DNA of 64,000 nucleotides, taken from assembly GCA_963803145.1 (NCBI GenBank), contig CAWDLW010000023.1, positions 96,001 through 160,000 of the forward strand. Direction: 5' to 3'. The translations under genes were made by a program, and so were the position numbers. The DNA is from Methanotrichaceae archaeon. Its GTDB lineage: Archaea; Halobacteriota; Methanosarcinia; Methanotrichales; Methanotrichaceae. The first letter of the stretch is position 1. Each line of letters starts with the position of its first letter. Positions 4,226 through 38,505 of the stretch are shown in pieces. A model generated the notes under the pieces. It was not told the origin of the DNA. It searched no databases and was given only the letters and a program-made list of their open reading frames with translations.

Positions 4226-4262
4226 GCGCTCGTGTGAGCGCTCGTGTGAGCGCTCGTGTGAG
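4226..4262 (+). repeat. Three exact tandem copies of GCGCTCGTGTGA
   Basis: Units at 4226, 4238 and 4250, directly before the capsid RBS. Confidence 0.95.
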
Positions 4263-4284
4263 TAATTTTAGGAGAGTGATAATT

Positions 4285-5250
4285 TTGGTATCTAACGATG
4301 GAATGAATAACTCCTCATTTATACCCATCGAATGGGCGATGGGACTGAGGACCATCGGTTACAACAGGATAACCGATTATGTGAAGAAGTACCAAGATAA
4401 CATGACTATGAGGAACGTCATAGCCAAAAAGACTGTGATAGATCCGGCTGCGGATATCGATCTGGTCCTTAGGTACGATGTAGACAATACAGAAGAGGCC
4501 AAGATCATGGCCAAGGGCTCTGTGGCCACGTCGCTCGAAGAGAACGGCAACATGGACAAGTATACTGTGATCCAGATCGGCAAGGGCTTCAAGATCTACG
4601 AGAGAGACCTGAAGAAAGATCCCGAGACCCAGACCAGGAAGATCGATATCTGCACAAGGCTGGTCCACAGGCTTGAGGATAAGCTAGCAATCCTCGGAAA
4701 CGTTGATGAAGGCATATACGGCCTTGCTAATGCAGCAGCCGATAACCCCAACGGTGAAATCCTGCCATTTGGGTCAGAAGAGGTCGAGAACGACAGCGGC
4801 GGCATCTCGATACCTAATAACGGTCAATGGAACGGCAAAGGACCCAACGGTAGGAGAGACATCTACGAAGATATCCTCGAAGCCACGACCAGAGTGGACC
4901 CTGACTTCGGATTCATGCCAGCATTCTTCATGGGCAATATCAGAACTTGTGCCATGCTGTTCAATAACGATTCCGAGAGGCATCCATTCGCTGACCAGAT
5001 CTGCGGCCTGTTCGGTAAGAATAGGGGCGACTATTCCTGGATATGGAGGTCTAACCTGATTCCTAATGGCATAGGCTATGTCATACCCAAGGATATGCTG
5101 GCTGCAGAGTTTGCCATCCAGTCTGAACTCCAGTTGAACACAGATTATCCGATCCAGCAGGGTAGGTTCTGGCCTGTAGACCTTACTGAGTGGATCGTGC
5201 CTGTTGAGGTCCACAGGAAGCAGGCTATAGTTCGAGTAGCTACGACTTAG
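4285..5250 (+). CDS. Major capsid protein (HK97 fold, encapsulin/DUF2184-like)
   Basis: ~321 aa; RLEDKLAILGN...GIYGLAN and YEDILEA motifs; RBS AGGAGAGTGA favours TTG 4285. Confidence 0.85.
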   Translation: MVSNDGMNNSSFIPIEWAMGLRTIGYNRITDYVKKYQDNMTMRNVIAKKTVIDPAADIDLVLRYDVDNTEEAKIMAKGSVATSLEENGNMDKYTVIQIGKGFKIYERDLKKDPETQTRKIDICTRLVHRLEDKLAILGNVDEGIYGLANAAADNPNGEILPFGSEEVENDSGGISIPNNGQWNGKGPNGRRDIYEDILEATTRVDPDFGFMPAFFMGNIRTCAMLFNNDSERHPFADQICGLFGKNRGDYSWIWRSNLIPNGIGYVIPKDMLAAEFAIQSELQLNTDYPIQQGRFWPVDLTEWIVPVEVHRKQAIVRVATT

Positions 5251-8258: not shown

Positions 8259-8699
8259 ATGACCAATGTTAGAGGTTTGTTAGTTGCCGGTCAAAACCAG
8301 GCCCTGGATGCAGTCTTTGGCTCTGGAACCCCGGCAACATTGTATGCAGGATTGGCCCAAAGTGTAACAGGATCTCCTTTGGCTCCATCGGGCGAGCCGA
8401 CCATAGGAAGCAATGGATATGCCAGGGTAGCTATTACAAATAACGCTACCAACTGGCCTGCTGCATCAGCGGGCGCTAAGACTTGCCAGGTTGATGTAGT
8501 ATTCCCAACTTCGAGCGGTGCATGGGCTTCAGGAAACCAGCTTACAGTATTCGTACTGTATGATTCCACAAGTGGCGGAGCAGCAATAGGGTTTGCGACG
8601 TTATCAACGCCCATAATCATATCAGGTGCGGGCATCACTGTAAAGCTACTGCATGCGAACAACGACCTGCAGGTGTCCATAACCGGGTCCGATACGTAA
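8259..8699 (+). CDS. Phage fibre-attachment protein (Gp80-like, E-x-x-x-x-x-x-GYAR family)
   Basis: LYAGL...GEPTIGSNGYARVAITN...VFPTSSGAW...LYDSTSGG. Confidence 0.7.
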   Translation: MTNVRGLLVAGQNQALDAVFGSGTPATLYAGLAQSVTGSPLAPSGEPTIGSNGYARVAITNNATNWPAASAGAKTCQVDVVFPTSSGAWASGNQLTVFVLYDSTSGGAAIGFATLSTPIIISGAGITVKLLHANNDLQVSITGSDT

Positions 8700-8700
8700 A

Positions 8701-8897: not shown

Positions 8898-8923
8898 AAA
8901 ATTATTTAGCCAGGAGGAATATA

Positions 8924-9415: not shown

Positions 9416-9756
9416 GAATAAGAATCTTTGAATCCCTTATCATTATTTTACTCCTGATGTCTGTTGTTACTGCACATCTAGCCACACCGTTGAATATCGT
9501 GCAGAATGCAGGCAAAGAGAACATAACTACAATCTCTATTTCAGGCCTGAACTCAAGTGCCGCTGATGCGATGGGAAAACTCAACAACAATAATTCTCTG
9601 TGGCGAGGATCGACCTTCCGTAATTTCGACAACGGAATTCGCGTTGATGCGGAATATACAATTATTCAAGGAACAAATAGCACTATCGGCGGAGTTCCTA
9701 CAAATCTACTCAACTTCTCAAAGACTATGCCGCCAATCGTGAAAGTAGGTGATTAA
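9412..9756 (+). CDS. Small secreted or membrane protein
   Basis: N-terminal hydrophobic signal; several N-x-S/T sequons. Confidence 0.65.
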   Translation: MRIRIFESLIIILLLMSVVTAHLATPLNIVQNAGKENITTISISGLNSSAADAMGKLNNNNSLWRGSTFRNFDNGIRVDAEYTIIQGTNSTIGGVPTNLLNFSKTMPPIVKVGD

Positions 9757-9757
9757 A

Positions 9758-10687
9758 ATGGTTGATAATCGTCGTACACACGGAATAAAAATATCTGATG
9801 ACCAGCGCCATGCTAATCGTAAGAGAAGCATGGTAGCTCATCAAAAGCTGAGAGCCGAGCACTTCACATATCCGAATTCGACTGACTGGCGCAATGTTGA
9901 CGGTAAAGACTTTACTACTTCGATAAAAGATCAACTGCAATGTGGAGCATGTACTGCTTTTGGAACTTGCGGAGTTGGTGAGTGCGTGTTTAAGATCACT
10001 CAGAACGATCCAACGTTGCAGCCGGATTTCTCGGAGCAGTTCTTGTTCAATGCAGTGAAAGGAACCTGCGAGGATGGTGCTGACATCAACGATATCACTC
10101 AGGCTCTAGTCGCACCAGGAACACCGGACGAGGCGTGTTGCGAGTATCTCCAAAAGCAAGTTTGCCCAGATGCTATCACGAGACTTTTCAAGGCAACAGG
10201 CAATACAGAGATTGTGACGGATGCCGAAGCTAAGCAGTGGCTAGCCACGAAAGGTCCGTTGGTATCGGGTATGGGAGTTCCAAAATCGTTCAATGATTAT
10301 AATGGCGGGATATTCAAACAGCAAGGAGCTAATGATGCAATAGAAGGATATCACTGCATAGGAATTTACGGATACAACGAAAAAGAAGGTTATTGGATCT
10401 GTAAGAACTCCTGGGGATCAGATATTTGGGGAGAGGCAAACCCGAATCCAAACGCTGATCTGACTAAGAAAGGCTGGTTCAAAATGGGCTATGGCGAATG
10501 TGGCATGGGATCTGATATACCGTTCTTCGGATTCCAGGCGGTGAAAGGCCCAAACTCGCCTAACCCAAATCCTGAGCCAGACCCAACCCCAAGTCCGATT
10601 AACGAGATTCCGTTGTGGATTAAAATAGCGGCTATCGTTGTAACGGTCGTTATCATCGCGCTCGGATTATACTTCAGAGCGAATTAA
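9758..10687 (+). CDS. Papain-family (C1A) cysteine protease with C-terminal TM anchor
   Basis: DWR, DQLQCGACTAF, SEQFL, GYHCIGIYGY, KNSWG, GWFKM; Pro-rich linker then LWIKIAAIVVTVVIIALGLYF. Confidence 0.92.
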   Translation: MVDNRRTHGIKISDDQRHANRKRSMVAHQKLRAEHFTYPNSTDWRNVDGKDFTTSIKDQLQCGACTAFGTCGVGECVFKITQNDPTLQPDFSEQFLFNAVKGTCEDGADINDITQALVAPGTPDEACCEYLQKQVCPDAITRLFKATGNTEIVTDAEAKQWLATKGPLVSGMGVPKSFNDYNGGIFKQQGANDAIEGYHCIGIYGYNEKEGYWICKNSWGSDIWGEANPNPNADLTKKGWFKMGYGECGMGSDIPFFGFQAVKGPNSPNPNPEPDPTPSPINEIPLWIKIAAIVVTVVIIALGLYFRAN

Positions 10688-10698
10688 AGATCAAACGA

Positions 10699-13650: not shown

Positions 13651-13729
13651 ATCATTTTTCAGTGCTCGGCAGTCGCTTTTTTGTTGCTGTCAATCTCGCA
13701 TTGAATGTTTAAGAAAATCTAGGAGGAAA

Positions 13730-14047: not shown

Positions 14048-14148
14048 GAAGGGATGCCTTATCACCACGAGCGCCCGTGTGATAAGACAGAGCCCTCATC
14101 GACACCTAACTCTCTCTCAGATTTTAATCTTTTTCGAGAGGCGATCGG

Positions 14149-14472: not shown

Positions 14473-14496
14473 CATCTGTGTTCGTCGGTTAAAGTT

Positions 14497-16722
14497 ATGA
14501 CTCTGCTAAAGTTCAATAGCAAATATGTATTGACGGACTCTTCTCATTCCGTCAACGTCTCATCGTCAACTTTAGCCGATGACACATACGCCTCTCAGAC
14601 TTTTTCATTATCTAAGACTCAAACAGTCCTTGTTATATATCAGGTCGCTAATAATTATGGAACTACTGAAGATTCAGCAGGAAAATATATAGCCATCAAT
14701 GTAGATGGAGTGAATTACGGTCAGGTTGGCCAATGTCCATACGATTCTAATTTTCCTGAAGGGGAGACAACTTTCTGGATCGGTTCATTGGCTGCAGGGA
14801 ACCATACTATTAAAGGCCAATTTGCTGCTACAGTCAATACGAAAACTGTTACTATCGATAACAGAAGCTTGATTATAATAATCTTTGACGGTGACGAATT
14901 TACTTTAGCAACAAGCGCAGTCGCTAACACATTTACGAGTACCTCATTTGCTGATGATAACGTTTCAATTACCGCAACTCCATCAGGGTCATGTGTTGCG
15001 TTAGCAATTTATGCCGTATCTAATAATAAAGGATCTGTAGAAGGAGGTTATGGCAGAAAGATTGCAATTAATTTTGGCGGCAGTGATTTGGTTCAGGTTG
15101 AAGGTACGCCAGCATGTGCCGCAAATTATACAGAGGCGGAATTTACAGCTTATGCAGCTAGTCAAGATGCAACTTCGCTGACGGTTAAAGGAAGGGCAGC
15201 GGTAAACTCATCAGGTACATCAACAATAGATAGGCACTATTTGGCATTGCTGTTTTTCGATCCATCGACTCTACTTGATATAAATACTACAGTTTCTCAA
15301 GTATCTACTACCAGTAACACATTAGTTGATGATTCACAATGTACTATCAGTAGAACAACTACCGACTCAAGAGAACTGCTAGTTATTGCAATAGGCACAA
15401 AACGCCGACCAACGAGCTCGGATTTTCATGGCGAATGTTATGGAATAAGTATCAATGGCGTGGATGTTGCTAGTTCGAGACAGTCACCGTTTAACTCCGG
15501 CGAAGCTAATTCAGTGTCTACAAGCTATGGTCTTACGGTAGCTGCAGGAAGTCAGACAATTAAAGGCAGACTCTCAAACAATTTGACCACCAGCACCGCA
15601 ATAATCGATGCCAGGGTAGTTATTGCATTATGGTTCTCATCAGGTTCTACCGTTGAAGATACTGCTTCAATTGGATCTATAAGCAATTTAACATCTACTG
15701 ATGAGCCATTGATTGAATTATCTGCTAATTTAGCGAATATATCAAAGATTTACGGTGTTAGAGAACTTATACAACAGATCCAATCAATCTTAACCAATTA
15801 TAGCTCTATTCAGTCAACGGACAGAATAATAGCAGAATTGGGCCTTATAATAGAGAGCATATCAAGTGCAAGCTCAATAGATGAGGTTACAGCCGAACCT
15901 ACAGCATCTATTAGTACATTAGCTCGAATCTATAGTGCCTATTCGTTATTTGAATTGATTGAAATAGCTGCATCCTGTCGGTCAGCCTCCCTAATTTCTG
16001 CTGTTGATAGGGTCCTAGCCGAGGCTGCAGCCCAGATCTTATCAGAGACGAATGTTCAGGCCATAACCGAGAGATTGCATGAATCTAGGGCTAATATAGA
16101 GGCTTCAAGCCTGCTTCAATCTAATGATGAGGTCCTGGAAATCGTACATTTAGCAATAGATTCAATCTCTAGGATTTTGTCAGATAACGAAAACATAGCA
16201 GAGACTGCAGCCAACTTGAGATCAAATTCAAAGCTTATGGCCGCTGCGTCCTTGATCTTGATAGAGGTTATAGAGAGGATAATTTCATCTTCTGAAGTAA
16301 ATCCTACGTTATGGCAAATCCAAGAGAGCCAGGCTAGATTATCATCAATATCTTCAGAATATAGCCATCTAGATTTAATTGCTGATATAGCCGCATTAAT
16401 CGTAGGCTCTTCAAGGATCTTATGTTCATCAAAGCAGGACGCAGAGTTTAAAGCGAAAGTATTTTCAGATTCCATTTTCTTTATAAACGAGTTTACCCGC
16501 CTATACGAGGCGTCAGCTGACATAAAATCTCTCGGCAATCTCATTTCAAGAATAAATGAGATTCAGGAAATCCAGGGCCTTATTCTTTCCGATTCTGAAT
16601 TAGAGGCCATGGCTTGGGCTGAAATGATCTATGTTAAGCTTTGGATGGAGACCTCTCTTTATAGAAATAACTTTGATAAAACCCAGATATTCAGGAAGAT
16701 GTATGATAGCTCGGAGGTGTAG
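14497..16722 (+). CDS. Fibre/receptor-binding protein: three ~125-aa head repeats plus Ser/Ile/Ala spacer
   Basis: STLADD, TSFADD and NTLVDD repeats; A-x-I-x-S-x-S repeats in the C-terminal half. Confidence 0.65.
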   Translation: MTLLKFNSKYVLTDSSHSVNVSSSTLADDTYASQTFSLSKTQTVLVIYQVANNYGTTEDSAGKYIAINVDGVNYGQVGQCPYDSNFPEGETTFWIGSLAAGNHTIKGQFAATVNTKTVTIDNRSLIIIIFDGDEFTLATSAVANTFTSTSFADDNVSITATPSGSCVALAIYAVSNNKGSVEGGYGRKIAINFGGSDLVQVEGTPACAANYTEAEFTAYAASQDATSLTVKGRAAVNSSGTSTIDRHYLALLFFDPSTLLDINTTVSQVSTTSNTLVDDSQCTISRTTTDSRELLVIAIGTKRRPTSSDFHGECYGISINGVDVASSRQSPFNSGEANSVSTSYGLTVAAGSQTIKGRLSNNLTTSTAIIDARVVIALWFSSGSTVEDTASIGSISNLTSTDEPLIELSANLANISKIYGVRELIQQIQSILTNYSSIQSTDRIIAELGLIIESISSASSIDEVTAEPTASISTLARIYSAYSLFELIEIAASCRSASLISAVDRVLAEAAAQILSETNVQAITERLHESRANIEASSLLQSNDEVLEIVHLAIDSISRILSDNENIAETAANLRSNSKLMAAASLILIEVIERIISSSEVNPTLWQIQESQARLSSISSEYSHLDLIADIAALIVGSSRILCSSKQDAEFKAKVFSDSIFFINEFTRLYEASADIKSLGNLISRINEIQEIQGLILSDSELEAMAWAEMIYVKLWMETSLYRNNFDKTQIFRKMYDSSEV

Positions 16723-16725
16723 GGC

Positions 16726-17025
16726 ATGTATGCTATACAAGGAGATACGGGAGGTCAAATAATTATAGATGTCTATGAGCGGGATGAGAACCAAGTTAAA
16801 CAGCCCGTAGATATAAGCGCTGCAATGCTGCTAAGGCTTGATGTAACCAGGCAGGACGGATCAATGGAGCAATGGACAGCAACCTTCTTTTCCAATACCC
16901 AGATATCTTATGTCATTCCGGCTAATGCTCTTCCTAAAAAAGAGACTATAAAAATTGATCCTTTTATTAAATGGTCTCCTGATCTATATTTCCATGGAAC
17001 GCCGATTTATCTTATTGTAGGGTGA
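16726..17025 (+). CDS. BppU N-terminal-like fibre/baseplate adaptor
   Basis: QGDTG...PVDISAA...DG...W-x-A...ISY pattern. Confidence 0.6.
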   Translation: MYAIQGDTGGQIIIDVYERDENQVKQPVDISAAMLLRLDVTRQDGSMEQWTATFFSNTQISYVIPANALPKKETIKIDPFIKWSPDLYFHGTPIYLIVG

Positions 17026-17028
17026 ATC

Positions 17029-18420
17029 ATGAGGCATAATACAGGAGTTATCAAGCAGAAACCAGACCCAAGGGATTATTCGATATATCACCCTAAAGTA
17101 AGATCATACTTCGAAAAAACTTTATTGCCTCATTTCTTGTTACCTTCATCAATAGACCTTAGATCTACCGGCAATATGCCTGAAAAAATATGGGATCAGG
17201 ACGGATTCAATACATGTGCTGCTTTTGCTTGTGCCGGTTGCATCGATTATGTTCTTCATAGGGATTATGGAATATTTTTAGATCCTTTAGGCCCATCTAA
17301 GGCATTTCAATATTATAATGCTACAATTCTCGAAGATGGAATCCCAATACAATTATCGCCATCGGCAGGAAGTACGATACGAGGTAACATGATGGCCGTT
17401 ATTGATTACGGGACCATTCCAGAATCGGATTATCTTTACACTGGTGATAACTGTGTGATGGACCCAGGAAGTGAAAATTATAATCTCGGGTCTCGAAATC
17501 TTGCCACTGCTGCAGTACTTATAAGTCAGCCAGGAATGAATTTAACCCAAATTCATAACGCAGCAAAGGCGCAAATTGCGGCAGGCAATCCAGTCGAATT
17601 CTGGGTAGCGTATTATCAACAGTTAGATGATGCAGACCATAGCACCGGAAATATAGGTATACCTTCATCATCAGGGGATTATCACAATACATTGCATGCA
17701 TTAAATTTAATTGGATATGATAATAACCATCTTAATTCAGATGCTTCATTAGGAGCTTACATTGTCCGCAATCATTGGGGTACATCCTGGGGGTTGAATG
17801 GCTATGGATGGCTTCCTTATTGGTGGTTCACTCATTTAGATCCATGGCTTAGTTCTCCTATGGTAGGTGATTTCTGGGTTTTAGTTTCAATGAACTATAA
17901 CTCAGCTCTGGATAAGGAGATATCGGGAGTTCTCAGAACAGTTTCAGAATTCAATGCAACTCCTGAAACTACAATATTCACAGAAGGAGCTAGCGGTTTA
18001 TTTGATGCATATCTTAACATAGCGCTAGATTCCGTACTTGGTTCAGGCAGTCCATCAAGTCTTTATGCGGGCCTGGTTACAGATTGCAGCAAAGACGGCA
18101 TATTAACCGGCGAGCCTACGATAGGAGTTAACGGATATGCCAGAGTCCAAATGGATAACGACGATACTGTTTTCCCTGCTGCAGCAGGTGGGGTTAAGAC
18201 TTGTGCTGCAGATATATTTTTCCCAGAATCTACCGGCTCATGGGCTTTAGGTAATGCATTTACGTATCTAGTTTTGTTCGATGCACCGAGCAGCGGGAAT
18301 GCTCTTGCTGCAGCACCACTTTGGCAGCCTTTCTATGTTCCTTCAGCTCGATACATGGCCGAATTCTTAGCCTTGTATCAATCCATCCAATTCTCATTAT
18401 TGCGAGTAGGTGGGGGTTAG
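17029..18420 (+). CDS. Papain-family (C1A) protease fused to a C-terminal Gp80-like virion domain
   Basis: PDPRDY, LPSSIDLR, DQDGFNTCAAF, HALNLIGYD, RNHWG, GYGWLPY; C-terminal ~150 aa paralogous to 8259-8699. Confidence 0.9.
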   Translation: MRHNTGVIKQKPDPRDYSIYHPKVRSYFEKTLLPHFLLPSSIDLRSTGNMPEKIWDQDGFNTCAAFACAGCIDYVLHRDYGIFLDPLGPSKAFQYYNATILEDGIPIQLSPSAGSTIRGNMMAVIDYGTIPESDYLYTGDNCVMDPGSENYNLGSRNLATAAVLISQPGMNLTQIHNAAKAQIAAGNPVEFWVAYYQQLDDADHSTGNIGIPSSSGDYHNTLHALNLIGYDNNHLNSDASLGAYIVRNHWGTSWGLNGYGWLPYWWFTHLDPWLSSPMVGDFWVLVSMNYNSALDKEISGVLRTVSEFNATPETTIFTEGASGLFDAYLNIALDSVLGSGSPSSLYAGLVTDCSKDGILTGEPTIGVNGYARVQMDNDDTVFPAAAGGVKTCAADIFFPESTGSWALGNAFTYLVLFDAPSSGNALAAAPLWQPFYVPSARYMAEFLALYQSIQFSLLRVGGG

Positions 18421-20580
18421 ATGACTGTTTTGACCTGGACCCAAACGAGCAGCAACTTAAATAGTACGAAATATGCGATGGGCGGGGATGGGAACAGAGG
18501 CGCAGCTATTTGCATTGGTGGTGATCATTACGGATCAGACATAATAGAAACTGAAGTATTCAACGGCTCTTCATGGTCTGTAGTGAGCAGCATGAATTAT
18601 AGCAGGCAATTTTTAGCGGCCGGAGGTTCGCCATCGGCAGCTTTTGCAACTTGCGGCCAAAATATGTATGTAGGCGGATCTATTAAGTCTACAGAACTCT
18701 ATAATGGTACTACATGGGCTATTTCTATTGATTGTTCAACTGCACGAAAGGAGCTAGCCGGTGGAGGTTCACCTTCTGCAGCTATAATTATGGGAGGCCA
18801 AGACGGCGTACAAACATACGATTTGTGCGAAACCTTTAATGGATCGGCATGGAGCACTCAAGGCAGCCTAACAGCAGTAACCCAAGACATGGGAGGCCAT
18901 GGAGATCCAACAAATGCCATAATTGCCGGTGGCATTGATGATATAGGTGTAACAAATACCACCCAGATTTGGAGCGGTTCAGCCTGGTCAAACACTGGAA
19001 CTTTAAACACATCTCGGCAAATGTTAGTAGTCGGCGGATCTTCAACTAACGCCTTATCAGCTACAGGAATGACGGCTACAGGTTATTGGTCTAACGCAAC
19101 AGAGCTATTCAATGGATCAACATGGTCAGTTGATTCTGCATTTCCAATGTACTGCGGTTATGGTGCAGGCAACGGCAATGCATCAACGGGTATAATTTTT
19201 GGTGGTCGAGCTTCAGCACCTCTATATCTATACTATACCTGGACGGCGCTTGCATCGAATATAGAAGAATCAGCATCTTTAGTTTCAGTCTCGAAGATTA
19301 GATCAAACTTCGAATATCCTATAGAAATATCTGAGAGTATAGGAAGTATATCGGGAATAACCGCAAATATTAGTGCTCTGGATGCTGAAAGAGTAGCGCT
19401 GATAACGACTATCTCCAGCATTCTTGCGACAGGGACACCATACGGGCCTAGGGAGATTGTCGCAGATTCAATAAGCGTTTCGGAAATTATAGCAAATGCT
19501 GAATATGAAATAGAAAAGGCCGCACACATCCTGAGTATATCCTTAATGGATGGCCATTTCGATTTTGGCGCTACAATAGATTCAGAAAGCCAAATCATAG
19601 CCAATCCCGAGCTAATCTATGAAGCTCATGGCAATATTCATAGCATCTCAAATGTTCTGGCCTATATCAGCGAGTATTATCTTCATACGGCAGCTAACCT
19701 GAATTCAGAGACCCAGTTTTTAGCCTGGCCGGAATGGGGGGATGTCTATACTCAGCTCGAAATAGCTCATATAACTTCAAGCTCGATAGTTAACGCAATA
19801 GGTAACTCGGAGCACGAATTAAGGGCTCTTTTGGCTTCTGGATCATCTTTAAGTTCAATCCTCCATTTAATACAAGATTGCTGGGCGGCAGGCTCAAACA
19901 CCTCAAAAATCTGGGTAGTAGGGACTGAAATTGATGTTCCTTTGGATATCATTTTAGCAGAATTTACCGTCCCGCCGCTATCATTAGTCTTTGCCAGGGT
20001 TTGCCCAATAAAAGATTTCACCGAGGAGGTAAATGTGGCTCAAAACGAAATAATATTTAAAGGGCAGTCTATGCTGAGGCTGCAGATAACCACGAACACG
20101 CCGATATCCGGAGCACAAGAATTAAGGATCAAATACAAGAAACCATCTGGAGTTACTGGACATTTTAGCGCTACGTCTATTGATGACATAAACGGTGTCT
20201 TAATTAGAGATATCATAGACAATTCCGAGATAGACGAGCAAGGAGATTGGACTATATGGCCATGGGTGAAGTTTTCAGATGGTCGAGATGCTCCGGGGTT
20301 CTGGGTAAAGATGACAATCATAGACGAGCCAGGCCATGAGCTAACCAGAGCCAAGCCTGTTAAACAGGCGAATCCTCGGACGCCCTTTACCTATATTTAC
20401 AAAAAGAATGGTCATCCTATTGCTTATGCCAAGCTGCTAATAGTTCAAAGGGATGAGCAAATCGAGGCTAAAACAGATATTCACGGCAAAGCAGGTCCTT
20501 ATTTGCTGATGCCTGGGCGCGTAGATATCAGGTCTCTTGATGGCCTCAATCATCATGAAATTTGCGAGGTAGGGGGATAG
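18421..20580 (+). CDS. Kelch-like beta-propeller fibre protein with spacer and BppU-like domain
   Basis: Six ~47-aa GG...TE-x-(F/Y)NG-x-x-W repeats; S-x-S spacer; YKKPSG...GDW-x-I-x-PWV domain. Confidence 0.75.
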   Translation: MTVLTWTQTSSNLNSTKYAMGGDGNRGAAICIGGDHYGSDIIETEVFNGSSWSVVSSMNYSRQFLAAGGSPSAAFATCGQNMYVGGSIKSTELYNGTTWAISIDCSTARKELAGGGSPSAAIIMGGQDGVQTYDLCETFNGSAWSTQGSLTAVTQDMGGHGDPTNAIIAGGIDDIGVTNTTQIWSGSAWSNTGTLNTSRQMLVVGGSSTNALSATGMTATGYWSNATELFNGSTWSVDSAFPMYCGYGAGNGNASTGIIFGGRASAPLYLYYTWTALASNIEESASLVSVSKIRSNFEYPIEISESIGSISGITANISALDAERVALITTISSILATGTPYGPREIVADSISVSEIIANAEYEIEKAAHILSISLMDGHFDFGATIDSESQIIANPELIYEAHGNIHSISNVLAYISEYYLHTAANLNSETQFLAWPEWGDVYTQLEIAHITSSSIVNAIGNSEHELRALLASGSSLSSILHLIQDCWAAGSNTSKIWVVGTEIDVPLDIILAEFTVPPLSLVFARVCPIKDFTEEVNVAQNEIIFKGQSMLRLQITTNTPISGAQELRIKYKKPSGVTGHFSATSIDDINGVLIRDIIDNSEIDEQGDWTIWPWVKFSDGRDAPGFWVKMTIIDEPGHELTRAKPVKQANPRTPFTYIYKKNGHPIAYAKLLIVQRDEQIEAKTDIHGKAGPYLLMPGRVDIRSLDGLNHHEICEVGG

Positions 20581-21026
20581 TGGCTTCTCTTCAGTTTCAA
20601 GGAATAGATAAATTAATAGAGGACTGGACAGCCAGAAGGGATCGAGCTCAGTCCGTGGCTGAGTTAATAGCCCTTGAAATGGGCCATATTGCAGAGAATG
20701 AAATCCATCCCTTGACTCATAAAATAACTGGAAATTGGGATAGATCGATACATACCGAAGTTGAATCAGATGGAACGATTATAAGGGCAAAGGTAGTTTC
20801 CCATGGCGCTTTTGCTTCTAACGGCTTCAATTATGGACCTCTTCAAGAGGCGCTGAATCATCCTATAGAAATTGGATTTTATCGAGCAATTCCGGAAATG
20901 ATTCAATTCTGGGAAGACAATTTTTTTAAGTCTATTGAATCGGGCGAAGTTCCTAATATCGAAGTTATGGATATCGGAATTCCGTATCCTCCAGGAAGCA
21001 AAAATCTTTCTAAAAATAATAGATAA
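20580..21026 (+). CDS. Tail completion protein (HK97 gp10-like)
   Basis: FQGIDKL...TGNWDRSI...Y-x-x-x-x-E pattern. Confidence 0.65.
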   Translation: MASLQFQGIDKLIEDWTARRDRAQSVAELIALEMGHIAENEIHPLTHKITGNWDRSIHTEVESDGTIIRAKVVSHGAFASNGFNYGPLQEALNHPIEIGFYRAIPEMIQFWEDNFFKSIESGEVPNIEVMDIGIPYPPGSKNLSKNNR

Positions 21027-23937: not shown

Positions 23938-23988
23938 TTGTATGTTCACAGGGAGCATACAACTAAAATATTTTTAGGATTGATACTT

Positions 23989-26900
23989 ATGGGCGTTGAT
24001 GATATTGGCTCGGCCGCAATGCTGGATATCTCTAATTATGTAAGTGCAGCCGATGCACTTATTGATAAGACCGAGCAGATGCAAGAGAAACTTAATGCCA
24101 TCTCTGAAAGTCTTAAAGATCCTATCCCTATCACCGTAGATATCAGCCAGATAGAGCAGGCCACAGAAAAGCTGGACGAGCTTAAGCTAACGAACATCGA
24201 TGTTTCAATGAATGCTGCAGATGTTCAGGAGCAACTAAACAATTTAACAGAGTCGTCAAGCGGTTTAGATAAGGAGCTGGAGATAGGCGTTACCGCTGAT
24301 ACGTCAGCTGCATCTGCTTCTATTTATGATCTAACCGACTCGGCAACAAGTCTAGCTGAAAATTCTTATGAACTTCTCATAACTGCCGACGATACACAGA
24401 CAATAGATAAATTTGTAGAAATTGAAGATAAATATGAAGAAATCAAACAGAAGGTAGCGGAGCCTTTAAAAGTAGGGGGTGAGGGAGGCGGGGAAGAAGA
24501 AGGGGGGATGTTGGAAAAGCTCAAAGGAGCGGCTGAAGGTTTTGGCGTTCCAACAGGTCTATTAAATGCGGGTCCTGAAATGCTGGTTGGCGCTGGTGCT
24601 GCAGTAGCTTTAGGCGAGGGCCTGCATAAGTCCGTTGAGGCGGCTACATCATTTCAACAAAGCATGCAATCAGTAGGAGCTTTGACGGGACAGACCACTA
24701 GCGGACTGAAAGAAATAGCCGAGGAAGCCAGCGGCGGAACTACAGTAGGCTTGAACGAGGCAGGCCAGGCCATGATTTCCCTGGCAGATAACGGCGTTCG
24801 AACAAAGGATATGGAAAAAGATCTAGCTGCCTCAATAACGCTTTCAGAAGGCGGAATAATAAGCATGGGGAGCGCTACAACAGTTTTGAGCACTACGCTA
24901 AAGCAATTCCATCAGGACGGGACCCAGGCGGCGCAAGATGTGAACATTATGATTGCCGCTTCGCAGCTGGGAAAGACTTCAACTGAGGATATGGCATCTG
25001 CATTGAGGATAGCGGGGCCTACCGCCTCAGCAGCCGGGTTATCATTTGCGGATACTGCAGGCTCTCTCTCTCTGATGGAGGGAGCCGGTATAAGGGCTAG
25101 AACCGCTTCAAGCGATCTAAATACAATTTTAAAAGATATGTCAGATCCGCCCAAGAAGGTTGCCGAAGGTTTAACCTCTATAGGTGTATCTGCTGACGAT
25201 ATTAATCCTCAGCTTCATTCTTTTGATGATGTAATCGCAGATTTAAAAACTCATATTACATCATCGGCTGAAGCATCAAAAATATTTGGTACTACTGCAG
25301 GCCCTGGACTTTGGGCGTTGCTGCAGCAGGCAAATTTAAAAGAATATACTCAAGATCTCCAAAACAGTAATGCCGGAGTCGAGGCGGCGGACAAAAACAC
25401 TCAGACATATGAAGCATCTATGAAAAAGTTTGGTGCGGCAATAGAAACATGCGAGATAGACTTAGGTACTCTTCTTCTTCCTATTTTAACAGATTTTGTT
25501 ACTGTTGTTGATGAAGGCGTTACCGCTCTTGATAAACTCGGAAAAGGCTTGTATTCAACTGGCGAATATGCGGCAAACACAACCAATTCAGGGCTTCAGA
25601 GTCTTGGTAATGTGGTGCAGCAGGGCACAAACTGGCTTGACAAAAATGCGCTTGGTATGACTGATGATCAAATATCGGCACAGTATGCCGATCCTGGTAA
25701 GAAGATAGGAACAACTGTAGGAGAGAATATCTGTAACGGCATCAGTGATTCATATGATGACATAAACGGCACCATGAACGATGTCTTAACAAAATCTGGA
25801 ACGGATGCAGGAACAGCTGCCGGAGCTGCAGCAGCAAAGGCTTTTTCGGATGCCAACGATGCTTATGCTAAATCTTATGGAAGCTACATAAGCAATGATT
25901 ATATCATGAAATGGAGAACATACGACCAAACAACGGGAGCGGTTACAAATCCCGGCGCATGGGTGAACCCTAATGAAGGGCAGCCAACGCAATCATACGA
26001 TTCAGGATTTAGCACCACGACTCATGCATTAAATGCAAAAGTCCCGCTAAGTTATTCAGAAAGTTATGGTGACTCCAGCGGTTCCGAATACGGTATGAGT
26101 GAGATGAATTTAACGATTGCCGGAAAGACTTATTCTTCTGGCTGGATAAAAAATGACTCATTCGACAGAGCTAATGAATTAAACAAGCTGATTTCGGAAG
26201 CGAGCGGGGATCTACATACTGATGTTAATACCTTGATCGGGGCCGAAGGAATGAATCTGCTGCAGGGAAAAGAGGATCAGACAACATATAATGCTAGGAT
26301 GGCGGTAAATTCGATAGCTGATGTAAAAATTACTCCTGCAACAGTCACAATAGACCCGACTAAACTTGATGAAGATAAAGCCTTTACAGATGATATAAAT
26401 AAAATGTATAAGGACAATACCGTATCTATAGATGATCTGACCAAGGCATACAAGGACTTTCAGAATGCGCCGAATCTTTCAACTAAAGTAATGGAAGATT
26501 ATTCCAACGTTCAAAGGGAAACCGAAGATTTAAAGAAATGGAATGAGCAATTACAAGAGCTTGAGGCAATGCCTGCAAAAGCTCAGCCTTCAGATTATTT
26601 GAATCAACTGAATACTTTAAAATCGGAGATCGAAGGAGCACAAACTTCTATAGCAGCGAACGTCAAGGACATCCATTCTGAACTTTCGAGTGTTTTTGAT
26701 ACTTCCGACATACCGATAGGAAACGTCAAAGGATGGATTGATACCCAAGTTGCTTCAATGGCGTCCACGATTAGCGATGATTGGAAAAAAGGATTCACTA
26801 TAACGGATGAAGATACAATTGCAGCTTTTGTACCAATGCTCCAATGGATGGAGAACAATATGCCCGTCGAGTTTGCCAGGATCGGCGGCACTTCAACTCT

Positions 26901-28764
26901 TGCCTTTGCTGAAGCATGCGCCGACAAATCATCAGATCTTGATGCTGTCTGGGCTAAGCTGGGGCAAAGCGCCGGGACTGCGTTAACTACAAATTTATTT
27001 GGAAATGTTGGAAATGTTCAAATCCCAGGGCAAGGCGGCATAGAAACCCTTCAACAGCAGATCCAGGATTGGATAAGCGATCCTTCAAAGCTCAAGGGAT
27101 CCGTCGATAACCTGGATGATTTCATGAAAAACTATTTCCAGCCCAAACTAGGGGATGACCTGAAAGGATTGGAAGATAACATGAGCATGGGATACAAAGG
27201 TTCCATCGAAGCGACTCAGACTTTTATTACCCAGCTTGAAACTTTGGCTTATCAGACGCCCGATATGTTCACCACTGATGAACTTAATGCCCTCTCGGAA
27301 TACAAGGATCATATGATAGACCTTAAAACGCTCTTAAAAGATATGGGAATAGATGTATCCAATTTAGCTGATGCCCAAAAGAAGCTATCCGACAGCACGA
27401 AAAACACCAACGATCAACTTAATGCTCAAAGATATGATCTTGCGGATCTGGGTACTGAAGGCGGCATGTTCGAGAAAGGCTTTATAGGCCCTGCAACCGA
27501 TCCTAACGCTTTAAAGACCTGGCAAGATAACATGCTCAACCTGGCACATACTAAATGGAGTATGGATCAGCAGGGAGGCTTAACTGTCGGATCTGGAACT
27601 AATGTTGCTGCAGCACCACCAGATATAGACACCTGGGCAAAATACCAGGATTATATCAAGACCGGAAAAGATGATACAGCCCAAACCCAAATTAACTTAG
27701 AGAATACGAATACAGCAGTAAATAATATCAAAGAGGGTTTCAAGGATGTTAACGATACAGCAACATCATTGAATAAGACGGTTGAGGCCACAAAATTAAA
27801 TATGGTGGATATGGAAAGCGCCATGACTAAAACCTTAGCATACTCGCCAAATGCAAATATGCTCGGGACTCAGACTCCAGCAGGAAGCATCCCATCTTTT
27901 GGAGCTCAGCCATTCAGCCCAATGAGCCCAGGATTAGCCAGCCTTCCAAACATTTACACATCTCAGAGCTCAAATTCAGTTTTAGAGTTCAATAACGCCC
28001 TTACATTGGTTAACAACTCGGCCAACGAATTAGGCACTACAACAGATAAACTCCTTACAACAGTAAATAATATCCAGAATACAACAAATGCGGTCGAGAA
28101 GGAAACGGATAATTCTTTAACAATATCAATGCAAATAAAAAATTTAGAAACTCAATCGAGTTCCATAGCGACCAACATTGATAAAACGCTATCAACATCA
28201 AACACGACTATTGCATCAATGAATACCTCTTTAGATACTCTGAATAAAGACCTCAATAGTACCGATAAGCTAATAGAATCAATGATTACGGATCTTGGTA
28301 CTGTCGAGGGAATTTTAACAGAAATTGGATCTATGGTTGCTACGATAGATGGAATATTCCAAGATATATTTATGAATGGCCAAGGGGGTGATACCGGCAG
28401 CATGTCAAGCGGTGGCGGCGGTGATTGGCTAAGCTTTGCCTCAGGCGGATTCATCCCAGGACCTACACCTATTATAGCCGGAGATTCGCCAGGTGGAGAA
28501 TGGCTGATACCTAACGATTTGATGAGCTCATTACTTAACAGCCTCTCGGATATCAGCAACCTAGGATCAGTAGGCAAAGCTTCAGCCTCATTGAGTCTCG
28601 ATACTTCATCGGTGAATTCAGAGATTGAAAAGCTTGCTGAATTGCTAAAATCGAACCCTGTAACGATACCGGCAAAAATTGTTTTCACAACAGATTCAAT
28701 AATGCTAAAGCAGGCTATTGAAGCTGCAGTTTATGAAGTTCTGAAAGATGTTAGGGTATCGTAG
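23989..28764 (+). CDS. Tape measure protein (TP901-like)
   Basis: ~1590 aa helical; AGPTASAAGLSF...G-x-x-A...L core; C-terminal FASGG...AGD...EWLIP motif. Confidence 0.92.
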   Translation: MGVDDIGSAAMLDISNYVSAADALIDKTEQMQEKLNAISESLKDPIPITVDISQIEQATEKLDELKLTNIDVSMNAADVQEQLNNLTESSSGLDKELEIGVTADTSAASASIYDLTDSATSLAENSYELLITADDTQTIDKFVEIEDKYEEIKQKVAEPLKVGGEGGGEEEGGMLEKLKGAAEGFGVPTGLLNAGPEMLVGAGAAVALGEGLHKSVEAATSFQQSMQSVGALTGQTTSGLKEIAEEASGGTTVGLNEAGQAMISLADNGVRTKDMEKDLAASITLSEGGIISMGSATTVLSTTLKQFHQDGTQAAQDVNIMIAASQLGKTSTEDMASALRIAGPTASAAGLSFADTAGSLSLMEGAGIRARTASSDLNTILKDMSDPPKKVAEGLTSIGVSADDINPQLHSFDDVIADLKTHITSSAEASKIFGTTAGPGLWALLQQANLKEYTQDLQNSNAGVEAADKNTQTYEASMKKFGAAIETCEIDLGTLLLPILTDFVTVVDEGVTALDKLGKGLYSTGEYAANTTNSGLQSLGNVVQQGTNWLDKNALGMTDDQISAQYADPGKKIGTTVGENICNGISDSYDDINGTMNDVLTKSGTDAGTAAGAAAAKAFSDANDAYAKSYGSYISNDYIMKWRTYDQTTGAVTNPGAWVNPNEGQPTQSYDSGFSTTTHALNAKVPLSYSESYGDSSGSEYGMSEMNLTIAGKTYSSGWIKNDSFDRANELNKLISEASGDLHTDVNTLIGAEGMNLLQGKEDQTTYNARMAVNSIADVKITPATVTIDPTKLDEDKAFTDDINKMYKDNTVSIDDLTKAYKDFQNAPNLSTKVMEDYSNVQRETEDLKKWNEQLQELEAMPAKAQPSDYLNQLNTLKSEIEGAQTSIAANVKDIHSELSSVFDTSDIPIGNVKGWIDTQVASMASTISDDWKKGFTITDEDTIAAFVPMLQWMENNMPVEFARIGGTSTLAFAEACADKSSDLDAVWAKLGQSAGTALTTNLFGNVGNVQIPGQGGIETLQQQIQDWISDPSKLKGSVDNLDDFMKNYFQPKLGDDLKGLEDNMSMGYKGSIEATQTFITQLETLAYQTPDMFTTDELNALSEYKDHMIDLKTLLKDMGIDVSNLADAQKKLSDSTKNTNDQLNAQRYDLADLGTEGGMFEKGFIGPATDPNALKTWQDNMLNLAHTKWSMDQQGGLTVGSGTNVAAAPPDIDTWAKYQDYIKTGKDDTAQTQINLENTNTAVNNIKEGFKDVNDTATSLNKTVEATKLNMVDMESAMTKTLAYSPNANMLGTQTPAGSIPSFGAQPFSPMSPGLASLPNIYTSQSSNSVLEFNNALTLVNNSANELGTTTDKLLTTVNNIQNTTNAVEKETDNSLTISMQIKNLETQSSSIATNIDKTLSTSNTTIASMNTSLDTLNKDLNSTDKLIESMITDLGTVEGILTEIGSMVATIDGIFQDIFMNGQGGDTGSMSSGGGGDWLSFASGGFIPGPTPIIAGDSPGGEWLIPNDLMSSLLNSLSDISNLGSVGKASASLSLDTSSVNSEIEKLAELLKSNPVTIPAKIVFTTDSIMLKQAIEAAVYEVLKDVRVS

Positions 28765-33535: not shown

Positions 33536-35806
33536 ATGGCCGAGGTTTATATTATTGCAATAATATCAAGCAAATCATCTTTAAATGCTGGAGATGCAAA
33601 ATATGATCTGAGCGCTTCGGCGTCTATAGCCAATTTTTCATCAATTTCAGGGATAGCTGAAATTGATATAGAGCCTTATGTACCGATCTATAACCTCAGC
33701 CGGGTTCTTGCTGCAGCCTCGAGGGAGAGAGTTCAGGAATATTCTGCTCTAATTAGCTCCAGGTCCCCAGTTGTTGCGGACTATGAAACGACGCAGCTGA
33801 TATTGATCAATGCAAGCCTATTCTCTCAGTCCTCGGCCAGGGCATCTTTTTATATCGGGCAGCTGCAGGAGATTTCAGCCTCGATAGATAGCATTTCTTC
33901 AGCCCATGCGAGCTTATCATGGTCTGCTTTTCTGGAGTCGATCTCGAGACTCGAGGCCAATGATGAGATTACCATAGAGGATAAATCAAGCATAAAGTCA
34001 GGATCCGGGATTTTAGCCATTCCAGAGATTCTTATTGAGGACTCAGCTGATATCCTATCGATTTCTGATGTTAAGCCTATATTCTCTTATTTCATTGCCT
34101 CCGTAGCTCAAACAATATTAGCTAACGGCTTTTATTTCCGTGGCCTGGGTGGAGGCTCAGATTATCAGCCATTCAAAGCCAAAATCGTAACATACAAGCA
34201 ATATGCCCAGAATCCAATCAAGGCAGATGAGCTTGTTTATACCTGTTCTATACATGAGCCGGCGCCCGCTCTACAGCAGGTAATCTTTGTAGATCAAGGA
34301 GAGCATGTTTTCAATGGTCTCATAACCAAAGCCGAGGATAACAAAAATTTTTGGAAAATAACTTGTCGGTCGATGGCCTATACATTAGATTTCAGAAGAA
34401 TCCCAGAGGTAGTTTATGGAGCAGGCTTAGCGCTAAATGATATACTTTCATCGGATTTGCCTTCATTATCTCCCCCGAAAATAGGTGTCTTATTCTTAAT
34501 TAGTAGCACCATCTCAGAGGGTCTATGGACTGCCTATAATGCGTATGCTCATAAGTTACCTAAGGGAGGCTTAAAGAGTCAAATTCAGGATTCGGACCTT
34601 TATGTATTTACCAGCATGCCATTCATAACCGACTTCGATGCATATGATGGAATTATCCATCTTTCCGAGGTAGGCAACATCCCGCCAGGCCCGAACCAAT
34701 CTTCGAGGGATGAAGATTATCTTTATATCAGGGTCGGAGATGATTCTTACTGGCCTAATGCGTTCCATGTAGCGGCTCCATATAAATTCGATTGCCAAAT
34801 ACGGTTTGGCGGTATCGATATAGGAGAATATACTAACACTATACCATTCTCTTTAGGCGGGTTAGCATCAAAGAATTTCGACGACTTCTTTATCAATATC
34901 GGTCGAGAGCTTCAATTTAAAAATGGTCTTGATGGCTGCGTTTACATGTTTCTTGCTGCAGAATGCAGCAGAGGATCACCGTCAAGTCCAGTTCGATATA
35001 TCAACGATGGCGAGGACGATTTCAGAATTTTAAGGATCAACCAGAAAGATCCTAATGTTCAAGCGGCAATAGGGATAGACTCAAATGATGCAGCCCAGCC
35101 TGAATATTCGATAACAGATTATGATAAGACCTCCGATATCCAGCTTTTCAAAGTATTTGATCGCAAAGGAGCTGAAAAGGATGAAACTCTATTTCAGTTA
35201 CAGCAGATCATAGATAACAACGATGATAGCTTTTCGGCAACCTCAAGAAATGTAGATTGGCATCTGAAAGTTGGAGATTGGCTAGTTTTACATAGGGATG
35301 ATTACGGCACTTTCCAGGTTAGGATCAGAGAGATAGATTATGATAATGGAATTCAAAGCTTAATATGCGGTAAAAGATTATTCACAGTAAGTAATAAATT
35401 TGGCGAGTATCTGAGAAAATCTATTCCATCCAGAGCAACGCCAATACAGACCACTGCGTTAGCAGGCGGAGCAGGAAGTTTTGTAATAAAGGCTTCTGAT
35501 GTCCAGGCCGGAGGCTTGGTAATCTATTTCGAGGACTCATTTGATACCTCTAACGAATCTGATATCTCGGTCCAGGTAGGAAGCTATTGTGATCTTCTAA
35601 TCAATAGTAAGATAGTTCCTCCAGGCAGGATCAAGCTGATCGATCAAACCAGCGTTAAAATCGATATAACGGACTATTGCAATATGTCATCAAGCGTAGA
35701 TACAACAAATACTGTAACAAGGAATTTCTATCAGGCTTCAGGCTGGTCCAGCCAGGGAGCTAAAATCACTCAATGGAGAGCTCTTAAGTTCCTCTCGCCG
35801 TTATAA
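33536..35806 (+). CDS. Tail hub/tip protein 2 (Tal-like paralogue)
   Basis: VFNGLI and LKVGDWLVL...RI motifs of hub proteins; N-terminal S-x-S spacer. Confidence 0.65.
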   Translation: MAEVYIIAIISSKSSLNAGDAKYDLSASASIANFSSISGIAEIDIEPYVPIYNLSRVLAAASRERVQEYSALISSRSPVVADYETTQLILINASLFSQSSARASFYIGQLQEISASIDSISSAHASLSWSAFLESISRLEANDEITIEDKSSIKSGSGILAIPEILIEDSADILSISDVKPIFSYFIASVAQTILANGFYFRGLGGGSDYQPFKAKIVTYKQYAQNPIKADELVYTCSIHEPAPALQQVIFVDQGEHVFNGLITKAEDNKNFWKITCRSMAYTLDFRRIPEVVYGAGLALNDILSSDLPSLSPPKIGVLFLISSTISEGLWTAYNAYAHKLPKGGLKSQIQDSDLYVFTSMPFITDFDAYDGIIHLSEVGNIPPGPNQSSRDEDYLYIRVGDDSYWPNAFHVAAPYKFDCQIRFGGIDIGEYTNTIPFSLGGLASKNFDDFFINIGRELQFKNGLDGCVYMFLAAECSRGSPSSPVRYINDGEDDFRILRINQKDPNVQAAIGIDSNDAAQPEYSITDYDKTSDIQLFKVFDRKGAEKDETLFQLQQIIDNNDDSFSATSRNVDWHLKVGDWLVLHRDDYGTFQVRIREIDYDNGIQSLICGKRLFTVSNKFGEYLRKSIPSRATPIQTTALAGGAGSFVIKASDVQAGGLVIYFEDSFDTSNESDISVQVGSYCDLLINSKIVPPGRIKLIDQTSVKIDITDYCNMSSSVDTTNTVTRNFYQASGWSSQGAKITQWRALKFLSPL

Positions 35807-37536: not shown

Positions 37537-38505
37537 TCACACCCCCAGCTGTGGTATGCATGCCAGATACTTTTCTCTGACAAGTTCCATATCAATTTTA
37601 TTATACCTGTGGAAAGCTAGCCCCCTCATGGAATCTCCCCTCAGGACCATAATATATTCTGTGGGCATACCAGCTCTCCATAAATATGTGGTGAACCAAT
37701 GCCTGCAGCAGTGCGCCGTGAACTGATCCTCCAGTCTGGAAGAGTTCGGATTATGAAGCCCGACACGCTCGGCATGGGCTTTGATGATCTCATTTATTTG
37801 CCAGCCAGTTATACGGCCGGATATCCCTCCTGGAAAGAGAGCCTCGCTGCCATGAGATCTATACTTTCTGGCCTGCAACCAGGCCTCCAGGACATCCGCA
37901 GTCTCGTTGTCGAAGAATAATAGCCTGTTGGAACGCTTAGCTGTCGGCTTCAGAAGGATCTCCATTTTTTCCAGATTGACATCAGATACATCGAGATTGC
38001 GCATCTCTTCTCTTCTCATACCCATCTTCAGAAGACTCCATACGATCGCCCTATCTCTGCTGTTTAATATCGAGTTTGCAAGCTTTGATGCGTCCTTGAT
38101 GCTTATTAGCTGTCTTGACTCCTGATAGCTATCCTCTTTATACCTATGCAAATACCGTTGCTTGAATGGGATAATTGGATTGTAGGCGATCATATGCTTA
38201 TATGCCAAGAACGAATAGAATTGTGATAAGCTGGCAAATATGCGATTCAGGCTAGATGGTTTGAGGCTCCTGGATTTAAGGTCTATAAGATACGCCTCCA
38301 TATCGCTTTCTTCGACCTCCAGAGGAGTCTTTCCACGGGCCTGCAGGAATCCAATGAATGCGCGGGTATATGTCATAGAGGCCTTGGGATTTATACCCCT
38401 CAAAATACAATCAGCCTTAAACTTATTTGCTAAATCTTCGGGAGAGAAAGTATCCTTTTCCAGGCCTTGAAAGTCAATTGTTTTGGCAGCATTCATCTGA
38501 TCCAC
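37537..38505 (-). CDS. Tyrosine recombinase/integrase
   Basis: SAM-like N domain; GMRREE, K, HCCRH and catalytic Tyr in HRYNKID. Confidence 0.95.
   Translation of the reverse strand: MDQMNAAKTIDFQGLEKDTFSPEDLANKFKADCILRGINPKASMTYTRAFIGFLQARGKTPLEVEESDMEAYLIDLKSRSLKPSSLNRIFASLSQFYSFLAYKHMIAYNPIIPFKQRYLHRYKEDSYQESRQLISIKDASKLANSILNSRDRAIVWSLLKMGMRREEMRNLDVSDVNLEKMEILLKPTAKRSNRLLFFDNETADVLEAWLQARKYRSHGSEALFPGGISGRITGWQINEIIKAHAERVGLHNPNSSRLEDQFTAHCCRHWFTTYLWRAGMPTEYIMVLRGDSMRGLAFHRYNKIDMELVREKYLACIPQLGV

Follow-up and report, generated by a model that had tools for sequence, protein, structure and literature searches.

The chain-like tail fibers of the podophages GP4, VP1, and A1002 are formed by fiber subunits of 140 to 171 residues (gp80, gp11, and gp40/gp41, respectively), which dimerize and are strung on a rope or fiber-dock protein (PMC13730344). 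The subunits, typically about 140 amino acids (aa) long and structurally represented by GP4 gp80 in entry 8JOU, belong to a single family, PF23140. A1002 uses two different subunit genes for its chain-like fiber (PMC13730344). Xylellain-type short peptidases of the C1A (papain) family have been acquired by Myoviridae, Siphoviridae, and giant viruses, and transfers into methanogens are frequent (Kordis and Turk, PMC10380794). Finally, virion-associated peptidoglycan hydrolases and depolymerase tailspikes are encoded among tail genes and follow a logic of an enzyme plus a virion anchor (PMC10791045, PMC13437554). Xylellain-type C1A genes in phages, chain-like Gp80 fibers, and virion-borne wall-degrading enzymes are already known. 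Here, we describe a C1A peptidase-Gp80 fusion gene at positions 17029..18420 (plus strand) of a 64,000-nucleotide stretch of contig CAWDLW010000023.1 from a Methanotrichaceae archaeon (the window), where it is part of a tailed provirus. We estimate a probability of roughly 0.5 that the product is a fiber-displayed protease which attacks the protein envelope of the host at entry.

The open reading frame (ORF) of the fusion starts with ATG and is open over 463 codons. Both halves of the 463-aa product were assigned by Pfam above the respective cut-offs: Peptidase_C1 (PF00112; E = 5.3e-10, 40.2 bits versus a cut-off of 20.7) and Gp80 (PF23140, "Podophage GP4 fiber I protein gp80"; E = 4.3e-12, 46.9 bits versus a cut-off of 27). 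NCBIfam gave no match for the fusion or its neighboring genes. An earlier interpretation made from the DNA letters (the sequence-only reading) had delineated this ORF and quoted sequence strings common to its C-terminal part and a second ORF; the strings are indeed present in the fusion and in ORF 8259-8699. A xylellain-type C1A peptidase domain comprises residues 4 to 290 (17038..17898), as delimited by AlphaFold2, Foldseek, and conservation in 56 sequences. It is followed by a linker outside both Pfam matches (residues 291 to 325; 17899..18003), which was recognized from the predicted secondary structure, with a helix at residues 292 to 308 predicted at low confidence, and from a drop in the predicted local distance difference test score (pLDDT) of AlphaFold2. 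The remainder (18004..18417) is a Gp80-like fiber-subunit domain, identified by Pfam and by paralogy to ORF 8259-8699, with the Pfam core at residues 339 to 434 (18043-18330).

By sequence and model, the N-terminal domain is a C1A papain-family peptidase and agrees with this family in every feature testable in silico. As had been read from the sequence before, all four catalytic residues are retained, namely, Gln57 (17197-17199), Cys63 (17215-17217), His223 (17695-17697), and Asn248 (17770-17772; all plus strand). In an alignment of the fusion with 55 C1 homologues and no other proteins (A6), Gln57, His223, and Asn248 were invariant, and Cys63 was kept in 54 of the 55 homologues. The residues at Cys63 read NTCAAFA in the fusion versus GSCTANA in the family consensus. 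The sequence-only reading had further reported a PDPRDY pro-motif. This segment is present at residues 12 to 17 and conserved across the homologues; Asp16 was kept in 51 of 55, which makes PDPRDY a family-wide N-terminal motif. In xylellain, this segment occludes the active site until activation, and PDPRDY may accordingly mark a pro-segment. No hydrophobic stretch was seen by eye at the N terminus of the fusion, which is in line with the reported lack of a signal peptide and would suit assembly of the protein in the cytoplasm.

With alignment A6, AlphaFold2 modeled residues 4 to 290 at a pLDDT of about 90. A single-sequence model (mean pLDDT, 29) was discarded, as were the joint C1 plus Gp80 alignments A5 and A7, in which C-terminal halves of C1 homologues had been misplaced onto the Gp80 domain. 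The closest solved fold was 3OIS, named xylellain of Xylella fastidiosa in the Foldseek table (E = 2.9e-17; template modeling score of 0.80 on the target), followed in the ranking by mite allergens (Der p 1), cathepsins, and falcipains. The same entry was the best solved sequence relative (phmmer, E = 9.9e-12, residues 37 to 286), and the catalytic residues of both proteins align. In the viral structure library BFVD, the top matches were peptidases of giant viruses and uncultured tailed phages. Xylellain and the "short" bacterial C1A peptidases are thus the best match in sequence and fold, with the same catalytic residues and N-terminal motif. However, peptidases of this type stand alone: the C1 homologues of the fusion were mostly single proteins of about 250 aa, named "C1A family cysteine protease" in their sources, whereas the peptidase described here is joined to a virion fiber domain.

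The paralogy of the C-terminal domain to the gene at 8259..8699 (plus strand), claimed in the sequence-only reading, was well supported. This gene encodes a stand-alone Gp80-like fiber subunit of 146 aa (PF23140, E = 1.6e-12), and 61 of 136 residues (45%) are identical between the two (BLASTP, E = 5e-35), a similarity far beyond chance. The presence of two different Gp80-type genes in one virus resembles the situation in A1002. A profile built from 71 family members, both window copies included (A1), matched chain a of 8JOU with an E value of 1.1e-21; this chain of 140 aa is named "Virion-associated phage protein" and is represented by 10 chains in the entry. The near-invariant Gp80 residues G26, E50, Y58, R60, and W93 correspond to G338, E362, Y370, R372, and W405 of the fusion, where all five are present. 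An exhaustive phmmer search with residues 313 to 463 yielded 485 representatives at E values of up to 0.001; the best 150 of these were mostly single domains of about 130 to 150 aa or tandem doubles of about 260 to 280 aa. Gp80 homologues were moreover found in 130 phage records (79 from Mycobacterium phages, 16 from Stenotrophomonas phages, and others from further hosts). The homologue of Sinorhizobium phage phiM5 is annotated as "detected in phage particle proteome" and is flanked by tail tubular protein A and a host-binding fiber, and those of Pam4 and Pipefish lie among tail and baseplate genes. Together with the solved structure, these contexts indicate that the Gp80 family is a virion tail component wherever the context was readable.

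The provirus extends from position 1 to about position 38500 of the window. It encodes a major capsid protein-like product (4234..5250, plus strand; phrog_264 major head protein, E = 2.6e-6), a tail tape measure protein (23938..28764, plus strand; PF10145, E = 5.8e-26; phrog_1533, E = 8.8e-51), whose presence points to a long-tailed virus, and, at its right end, a tyrosine integrase (37537..38505, minus strand; PF00589, E = 1.2e-18). Beyond the integrase, methanogen genes follow (FmdE, CbiK, CbiM, CDC48, and an F420-dependent oxidoreductase). The fusion itself is situated after the capsid-like gene and before the tape measure gene within a tightly packed run of genes on the same strand (8259-20580), is separated from both adjoining genes by 0 to 3 bases, and is surrounded by structural genes that are all intact. 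Domain order and gene position thus place an enzyme domain and a virion structural module in one protein among structural genes. McrA of the host genome clusters at 90% identity with members named "Methanothrix sp." and "Methanotrichaceae archaeon," and eight matches to the surface layer (S-layer) family PF07752 (DUF1608; best E = 4.7e-97), one of them a tandem-domain gene at G000 C8:236263-237876, were found in the same genome, indicating a Methanotrichaceae-type archaeon with a protein envelope as the host. In Methanothrix, the sheath consists of amyloid protein hoops (PMC11576556).

In the mechanism that we propose, the C-terminal Gp80 domain would form a pair, with either its own kind or the 146-aa paralogue as the partner. 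Beta-strand addition would attach this pair to a 20-residue repeat of a rope protein, for which a 741-aa protein encoded two genes upstream of the fusion is the best candidate. The papain-type protease at the N terminus would hang from a chain-like fiber of the virion. At a Methanotrichaceae-type host, it would locally cut the protein envelope (the S-layer and perhaps the sheath), and this cut would allow the tail to reach the membrane. The sequence-only reading had already envisaged a particle-displayed protease aimed at a protein wall; architecture, gene context, and the fit to the host speak for it, while we infer virion presence, activity, and substrate, as well as dimerization, docking, and a function in entry rather than exit. 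Compared to the podophage chain fibers, whose rope may have a counterpart in the periodic-repeat neighbors of the provirus genes, the subunit carries a 300-residue protease in front, the predicted tail is long, the host is an archaeon, and rope docking is proposed by analogy.

Other proteins in which Gp80 is joined to foreign parts were also detected. Among six matches of a first search, the sole protein with both C1 and Gp80 domains was the fusion itself. A domain scan was then applied to 18 of the best 150 of the 485 Gp80 relatives, including all twelve that exceed 300 aa, and protease-like domains were present in P0001, P0007, and P0090 only. P0007 (410 aa), found among the longer relatives of the 146-aa paralogue, combines C1 with Gp80. 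The C1 domain of this protein shares 32% identity (E = 1e-34) with a second C1 peptidase of the window (9749-10687), whereas likeness to the C1 domain of the fusion exists at the family level only, so that two C1 lineages have been joined to Gp80. P0090 (355 aa) carries GDSGGP and TAGHV motifs before Gp80, with weak Pfam trypsin matches below the cut-offs, and from these motifs may represent a third, trypsin-like kind of protease-Gp80 fusion. Nonprotease cargo occurs as well: P0102 consists of DUF4082 and Gp80. P0151 has a long N-terminal region. Gp80 occupies the C terminus in five of the six proteins that contain foreign parts, i.e., the cargo is in front and the bead behind. A search of viral contigs yielded no relatives of either the fusion or P0007.

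The second C1 peptidase (9749..10687, plus strand; 312 aa; PF00112, E = 9.2e-26) belongs to another lineage and is 22% identical to the C1 domain of the fusion. By eye, it has a Pro/Asn-rich linker and a C-terminal hydrophobic anchor but no N-terminal signal. Its closest relative seen is the C1 domain of P0007, where Gp80 takes the place of the anchor. Its start is overlapped by 8 bases by a 114-aa ORF (9412-9756) with a hydrophobic N-terminal segment, which has no family match in Pfam and could encode a membrane partner or a holin-like protein. In ORFs 8849, 9412, 10735, 13601, and 14149, Pfam showed neither a third protease nor a holin family at E values of up to 0.5. From its sequence features, the anchored peptidase is a possible exit enzyme and seems better suited to exit than the fusion.

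Proteins with 20-residue repeats were examined for a general association with Gp80 genes. Self-similarity at a lag of 20 residues was scored for same-strand ORFs, read from stop to stop, with a threshold of 1.1, in a metagenome set of 80 loci with a Gp80 alignment and in an independent set of 28 loci from species genomes. For the metagenome set, the threshold was reached by 30 of 487 ORFs located up to 3 kb from Gp80, compared to none of 212 beyond 4 kb; at control lags (16 to 18 and 23 to 25), the numbers were 2/487 near and 1/212 far. Among loci flanked by 1.5 kb or more, 25 of 54 contained such an ORF; with 3 kb on both sides, the number was 9 of 15. The species genomes gave 8/276 near versus 0/227 far, distributed over 8 of the 28 loci. 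Many of the periodic ORFs are less than 100 bases away from the Gp80 gene, and their repeats are plain by eye. Proteins with an exact 20-residue period were seen beside Gp80 genes in many bacterial phage-like loci (e.g., L062, L013, L028, L053, and L038), and among the cases scanned, Pfam contained no family for them. They may be a general rope partner of Gp80, and adjacency together with the literature suggests that the 20-residue repeats would serve as docking sites. Sequence searches of solved structures with the repeat region of the 741-aa protein and two strongly periodic ORFs as queries did not retrieve the rope chain of 8JOU. The only match was a weak one, between a strongly 20-residue-periodic ORF (L062:2750-3505) and the "60 kDa protein" of PDB entry 9LC0 (E = 0.014), which has a similar periodic pattern in the aligned part.

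Within the provirus, the lag-20 score is highest for the 741-aa candidate rope protein (14497..16722, plus strand; score, 0.88; z = 6.9; none of 200 shuffles as high). This protein is composed of degenerate 20-residue repeats at residues of about 381 to 720 (15637-16656). Its N-terminal 380 residues (14497-15636) show, by eye, three internal repeats of about 125 residues, each closed by a hydrophobic strand (…IDNRSLIIIIFDG, …IDRHYLALLFFD, and …IDARVVIALWFS); this part may be receptor binding. Between the 741-aa protein and the fusion, a 99-aa gene (16726..17025, plus strand) is related (BLASTP, E = 4e-7) to a 94-aa gene on contig C2 of another host-family genome, G038, where a 194-aa repeat protein, the 94-aa gene, and Gp80 mirror the order of the 741-aa gene, the 99-aa gene, and the fusion.

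Downstream, the start of a 719-aa protein (18421..20580, plus strand; phrog_27227, E = 1.2e-30) abuts the stop of the fusion. It has propeller-like repeats of about 45 residues at residues 1 to 270 and is weakly periodic at about residues 275 to 490. Over 260 aa, this propeller-like part shares 35% identity (E = 3e-24) with a protein of metagenome locus L047 which has perfect 20-residue repeats after the same propeller. At that locus, the propeller-repeat protein follows the Gp80 gene and a homologue of the window gene 7430-8257 (plus strand). The latter encodes a helical protein of 275 aa, a recurrent Gp80 neighbor that is 42% identical over 219 aa (E = 4e-50) to L047:2019-2693 and has no match in Pfam, PHROG, or ESM Atlas; these proteins of about 225 to 275 aa may be assembly factors. 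The propeller-like region at the N terminus of the 719-aa protein (18421-19230) recurs at the N terminus of a 1582-aa protein (28779-29600 for this region), both matching phrog_27227 (E = 1e-30 and 8e-34, respectively), so that the provirus has two proteins that share a head but differ in their tails. A 756-aa protein encoded downstream of the tape measure gene (33536..35806, plus strand) is a second rope candidate, with 20- to 22-residue repeats at residues 10 to 190 (lag-20 z = 4.3; 0 of 200 shuffles; best lag, 22). A complex prediction of two Gp80 domains of the fusion with residues 281 to 370 of the 719-aa protein, run without controls, scored 0.00, which we regard as neutral.

A broader picture, which we put forward tentatively and with less confidence than the role of the fusion itself, is that chain-like fibers are modular display scaffolds on which plain and enzyme-carrying Gp80 beads occupy 20-residue sites. 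The provirus might then build a "proteolytic bead chain" for entry, which would digest the S-layer and perhaps the amyloid-like sheath as well, with the anchored second C1 peptidase acting at exit.

Several observations weigh against a fiber-displayed protease that acts at entry. Across very large protein collections, the fusion occurred as a singleton. The occurrence of Gp80 in a provirus of an archaeon is in itself unusual: each of the 28 Gp80 loci from species genomes stood under a bacterial title, and only 2 of 101 host-family genomes contain the domain, this genome (G000) included. The module may therefore be a recent import, in which case its role in an archaeal virus would be conjectural. 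The other host-family case is itself questionable, as contig C2 of G038 (L129, G038:C2:7000-26999; G+C content, 51.6%) carries a bacteriophage holin (Phage_holin_4_1, PF05105, E = 6.5e-42) and is possibly a bacterial phage that was mis-binned. In the model of the fusion, the Gp80 part (the C-terminal 150 residues) has a pLDDT under 50, which is explained by the lack of a usable alignment for this domain. With regard to the rope, the score of 0.88 of the 741-aa protein lies below the threshold of 1.1 applied at other loci and its repeats are degenerate, and the lag-20 signal of the 719-aa protein is weak (z = 2.4; 2 of 200 shuffles) and no better than that of two unrelated ORFs. In addition, the conserved N-terminal segment may, as in xylellain, keep the protease latent, and lysin-like proteins of bacterial phages carry the same C1 type, which fits exit as well as entry.

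Egress and the processing of viral fiber proteins are other possible roles for the fusion. The main rival is an exit enzyme that opens the envelope late and from inside, with the Gp80-like domain as a wall- or sheath-binding module or a relic of shuffling. Such a role agrees with work on archaea that have a sheath, according to which egress "may require ... virus-encoded proteases" (PMC11576556), and with two bacterial phage proteins: P0005, a lysin-like protein in which the same C1 type is joined to Amidase_2, and a 753-aa protein of Alicyclobacillus phage MMB025, annotated as an endolysin, in which C1 occurs with a glycoside-hydrolase-like domain and PG_binding_1. The latter protein (L130:2878-5139) was seen to comprise C1, Big_1, Rv2525c-like glycoside-hydrolase-like, and PG_binding_1 domains, and its gene is located about 1.7 kb downstream of a tail fiber gene, with four small genes in between; it might be virion borne and not a classical endolysin. 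Although these lysins likewise use C1 as a module of an envelope-degrading protein, their partner domains bind or cut peptidoglycan, whereas the partner in the fusion is a fiber subunit, and Gp80 relatives are not known to act as wall-binding modules; the ones whose context was read are located in tail modules. The fusion has, by eye, neither a signal peptide nor a membrane segment, and it resides among fiber-type genes outside any lysis cassette. Pfam detected no holin family in the neighboring genes, and with Pfam, PHROGs, and NCBIfam together, neither the fusion nor its neighbors showed a holin or wall-binding family, although small membrane proteins without a family would escape these scans. 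The anchored C1 peptidase at 9749-10687 is also the more natural exit candidate. We consider it unlikely that the fusion serves in exit. A protease of assembly or maturation, trimming viral fiber or rope proteins or itself and not directed at the host, would be in keeping with A1002 gp41, of which about 30 N-terminal residues are absent from the map and were suggested by the authors to be removed proteolytically (PMC13730344). The sequence-only reading had listed the processing of viral proteins as a case that would refute it. Yet most Gp80 systems manage without a protease (3 of the 18 scanned carry a protease-like domain), and fusion to a structural subunit makes the enzyme a permanent part of the product, an uncommon arrangement for processing enzymes. 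The similar fusion of two further protease classes or lineages and of DUF4082 looks like the display of cargo, which leaves maturation quite improbable.

Two further explanations would leave the fusion without a part in breaching the wall. Displayed on the virion, it could be a latent or inactive binding module, or it could digest other extracellular proteins, such as matrix, pili, or archaella, on the way to the cell. The conserved PDPRDY segment, which may occlude the active site as in xylellain, and the surroundings of Cys63, which deviate from the consensus, would suit this explanation; the retention of all four catalytic residues, in contrast, argues against a dead enzyme, and we assign only a small probability to it. 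Least probable in our assessment is a relic, i.e., a defective provirus or a recent and functionless accident of fusion. Besides the singleton status, only traces of DNA from the region appeared in public sequencing, with a single DNA run containing a small share (0.07) and two contigs of 151 and 187 bases on positions 14400-20700; no RNA run was listed. Against a relic stand the frame open over its full length with catalytic and Gp80 signature residues kept, the intact and tightly packed neighboring structural genes, and the same architecture having arisen in P0007 with the other C1 lineage.

A protease displayed at entry would differ from other enzymes known to act on cell envelopes. Virion-associated hydrolases and depolymerases share its enzyme-plus-anchor logic, but the predicted substrate of the fusion is protein and not glycan or peptidoglycan, and its anchor is a Gp80 bead and not a tailspike or hub. 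The enzymes PeiW, PeiP, and PeiR of methanogen viruses resemble it in being provirus enzymes with cysteine-type cleavage of peptide bonds in a methanogen wall; in contrast, they cut pseudomurein at exit and belong to another family (PMC10791045). The Pei-type Pfam family had no match in the fusion. Methanotrichaceae are not known to have pseudomurein. The SH-like proteins of viruses of sheathed archaea have been proposed as a viral answer to the same protein sheath of Methanotrichales and relatives, but these are secreted structural mimics proposed to weaken the sheath at exit (PMC11576556), whereas the fusion is a predicted enzyme with a virion module and no signal peptide.

Protease-Gp80 fusions and proteins of exact 20-residue period beside Gp80 genes are new observations. 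In full-text searches, whose scope did not extend to the compendium of methanogen viruses by Medvedeva et al. 2023 and its supplements, where this provirus may be listed, there was no report of a protease-Gp80 fusion or of a virion protease for an archaeal envelope. Neither "protease" nor "proteolytic" occurs in the two reviews that describe related enzymes (PMC10791045, PMC13437554). For sheathed methanogens, proteases encoded by viruses have been suggested (PMC11576556), and no report of them was present in the texts searched. For most tailed archaeal viruses, passage through the protein S-layer is "still a mystery" (PMC10791045). The fusion is a concrete and testable candidate for this step, being a predicted small soluble enzyme for which a class of inhibitors is known and whose predicted substrates are encoded in the same genome. 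The 485 representatives and 130 phage records suggest that Gp80 chain-like fibers, so far described from three podophages, are widespread. The fibers would have a recognizable 20-residue-repeat partner and be able to carry enzymes. If true, the pairing of Gp80 and repeats would help to annotate many "hypothetical" tail genes, and a proteolytic bead chain would constitute the first example of a virion-borne protease that breaches the protein envelope of an archaeon. Methanothrix-type archaea rank among the major producers of methane, which would also lend practical interest to enzymes capable of opening their envelope.

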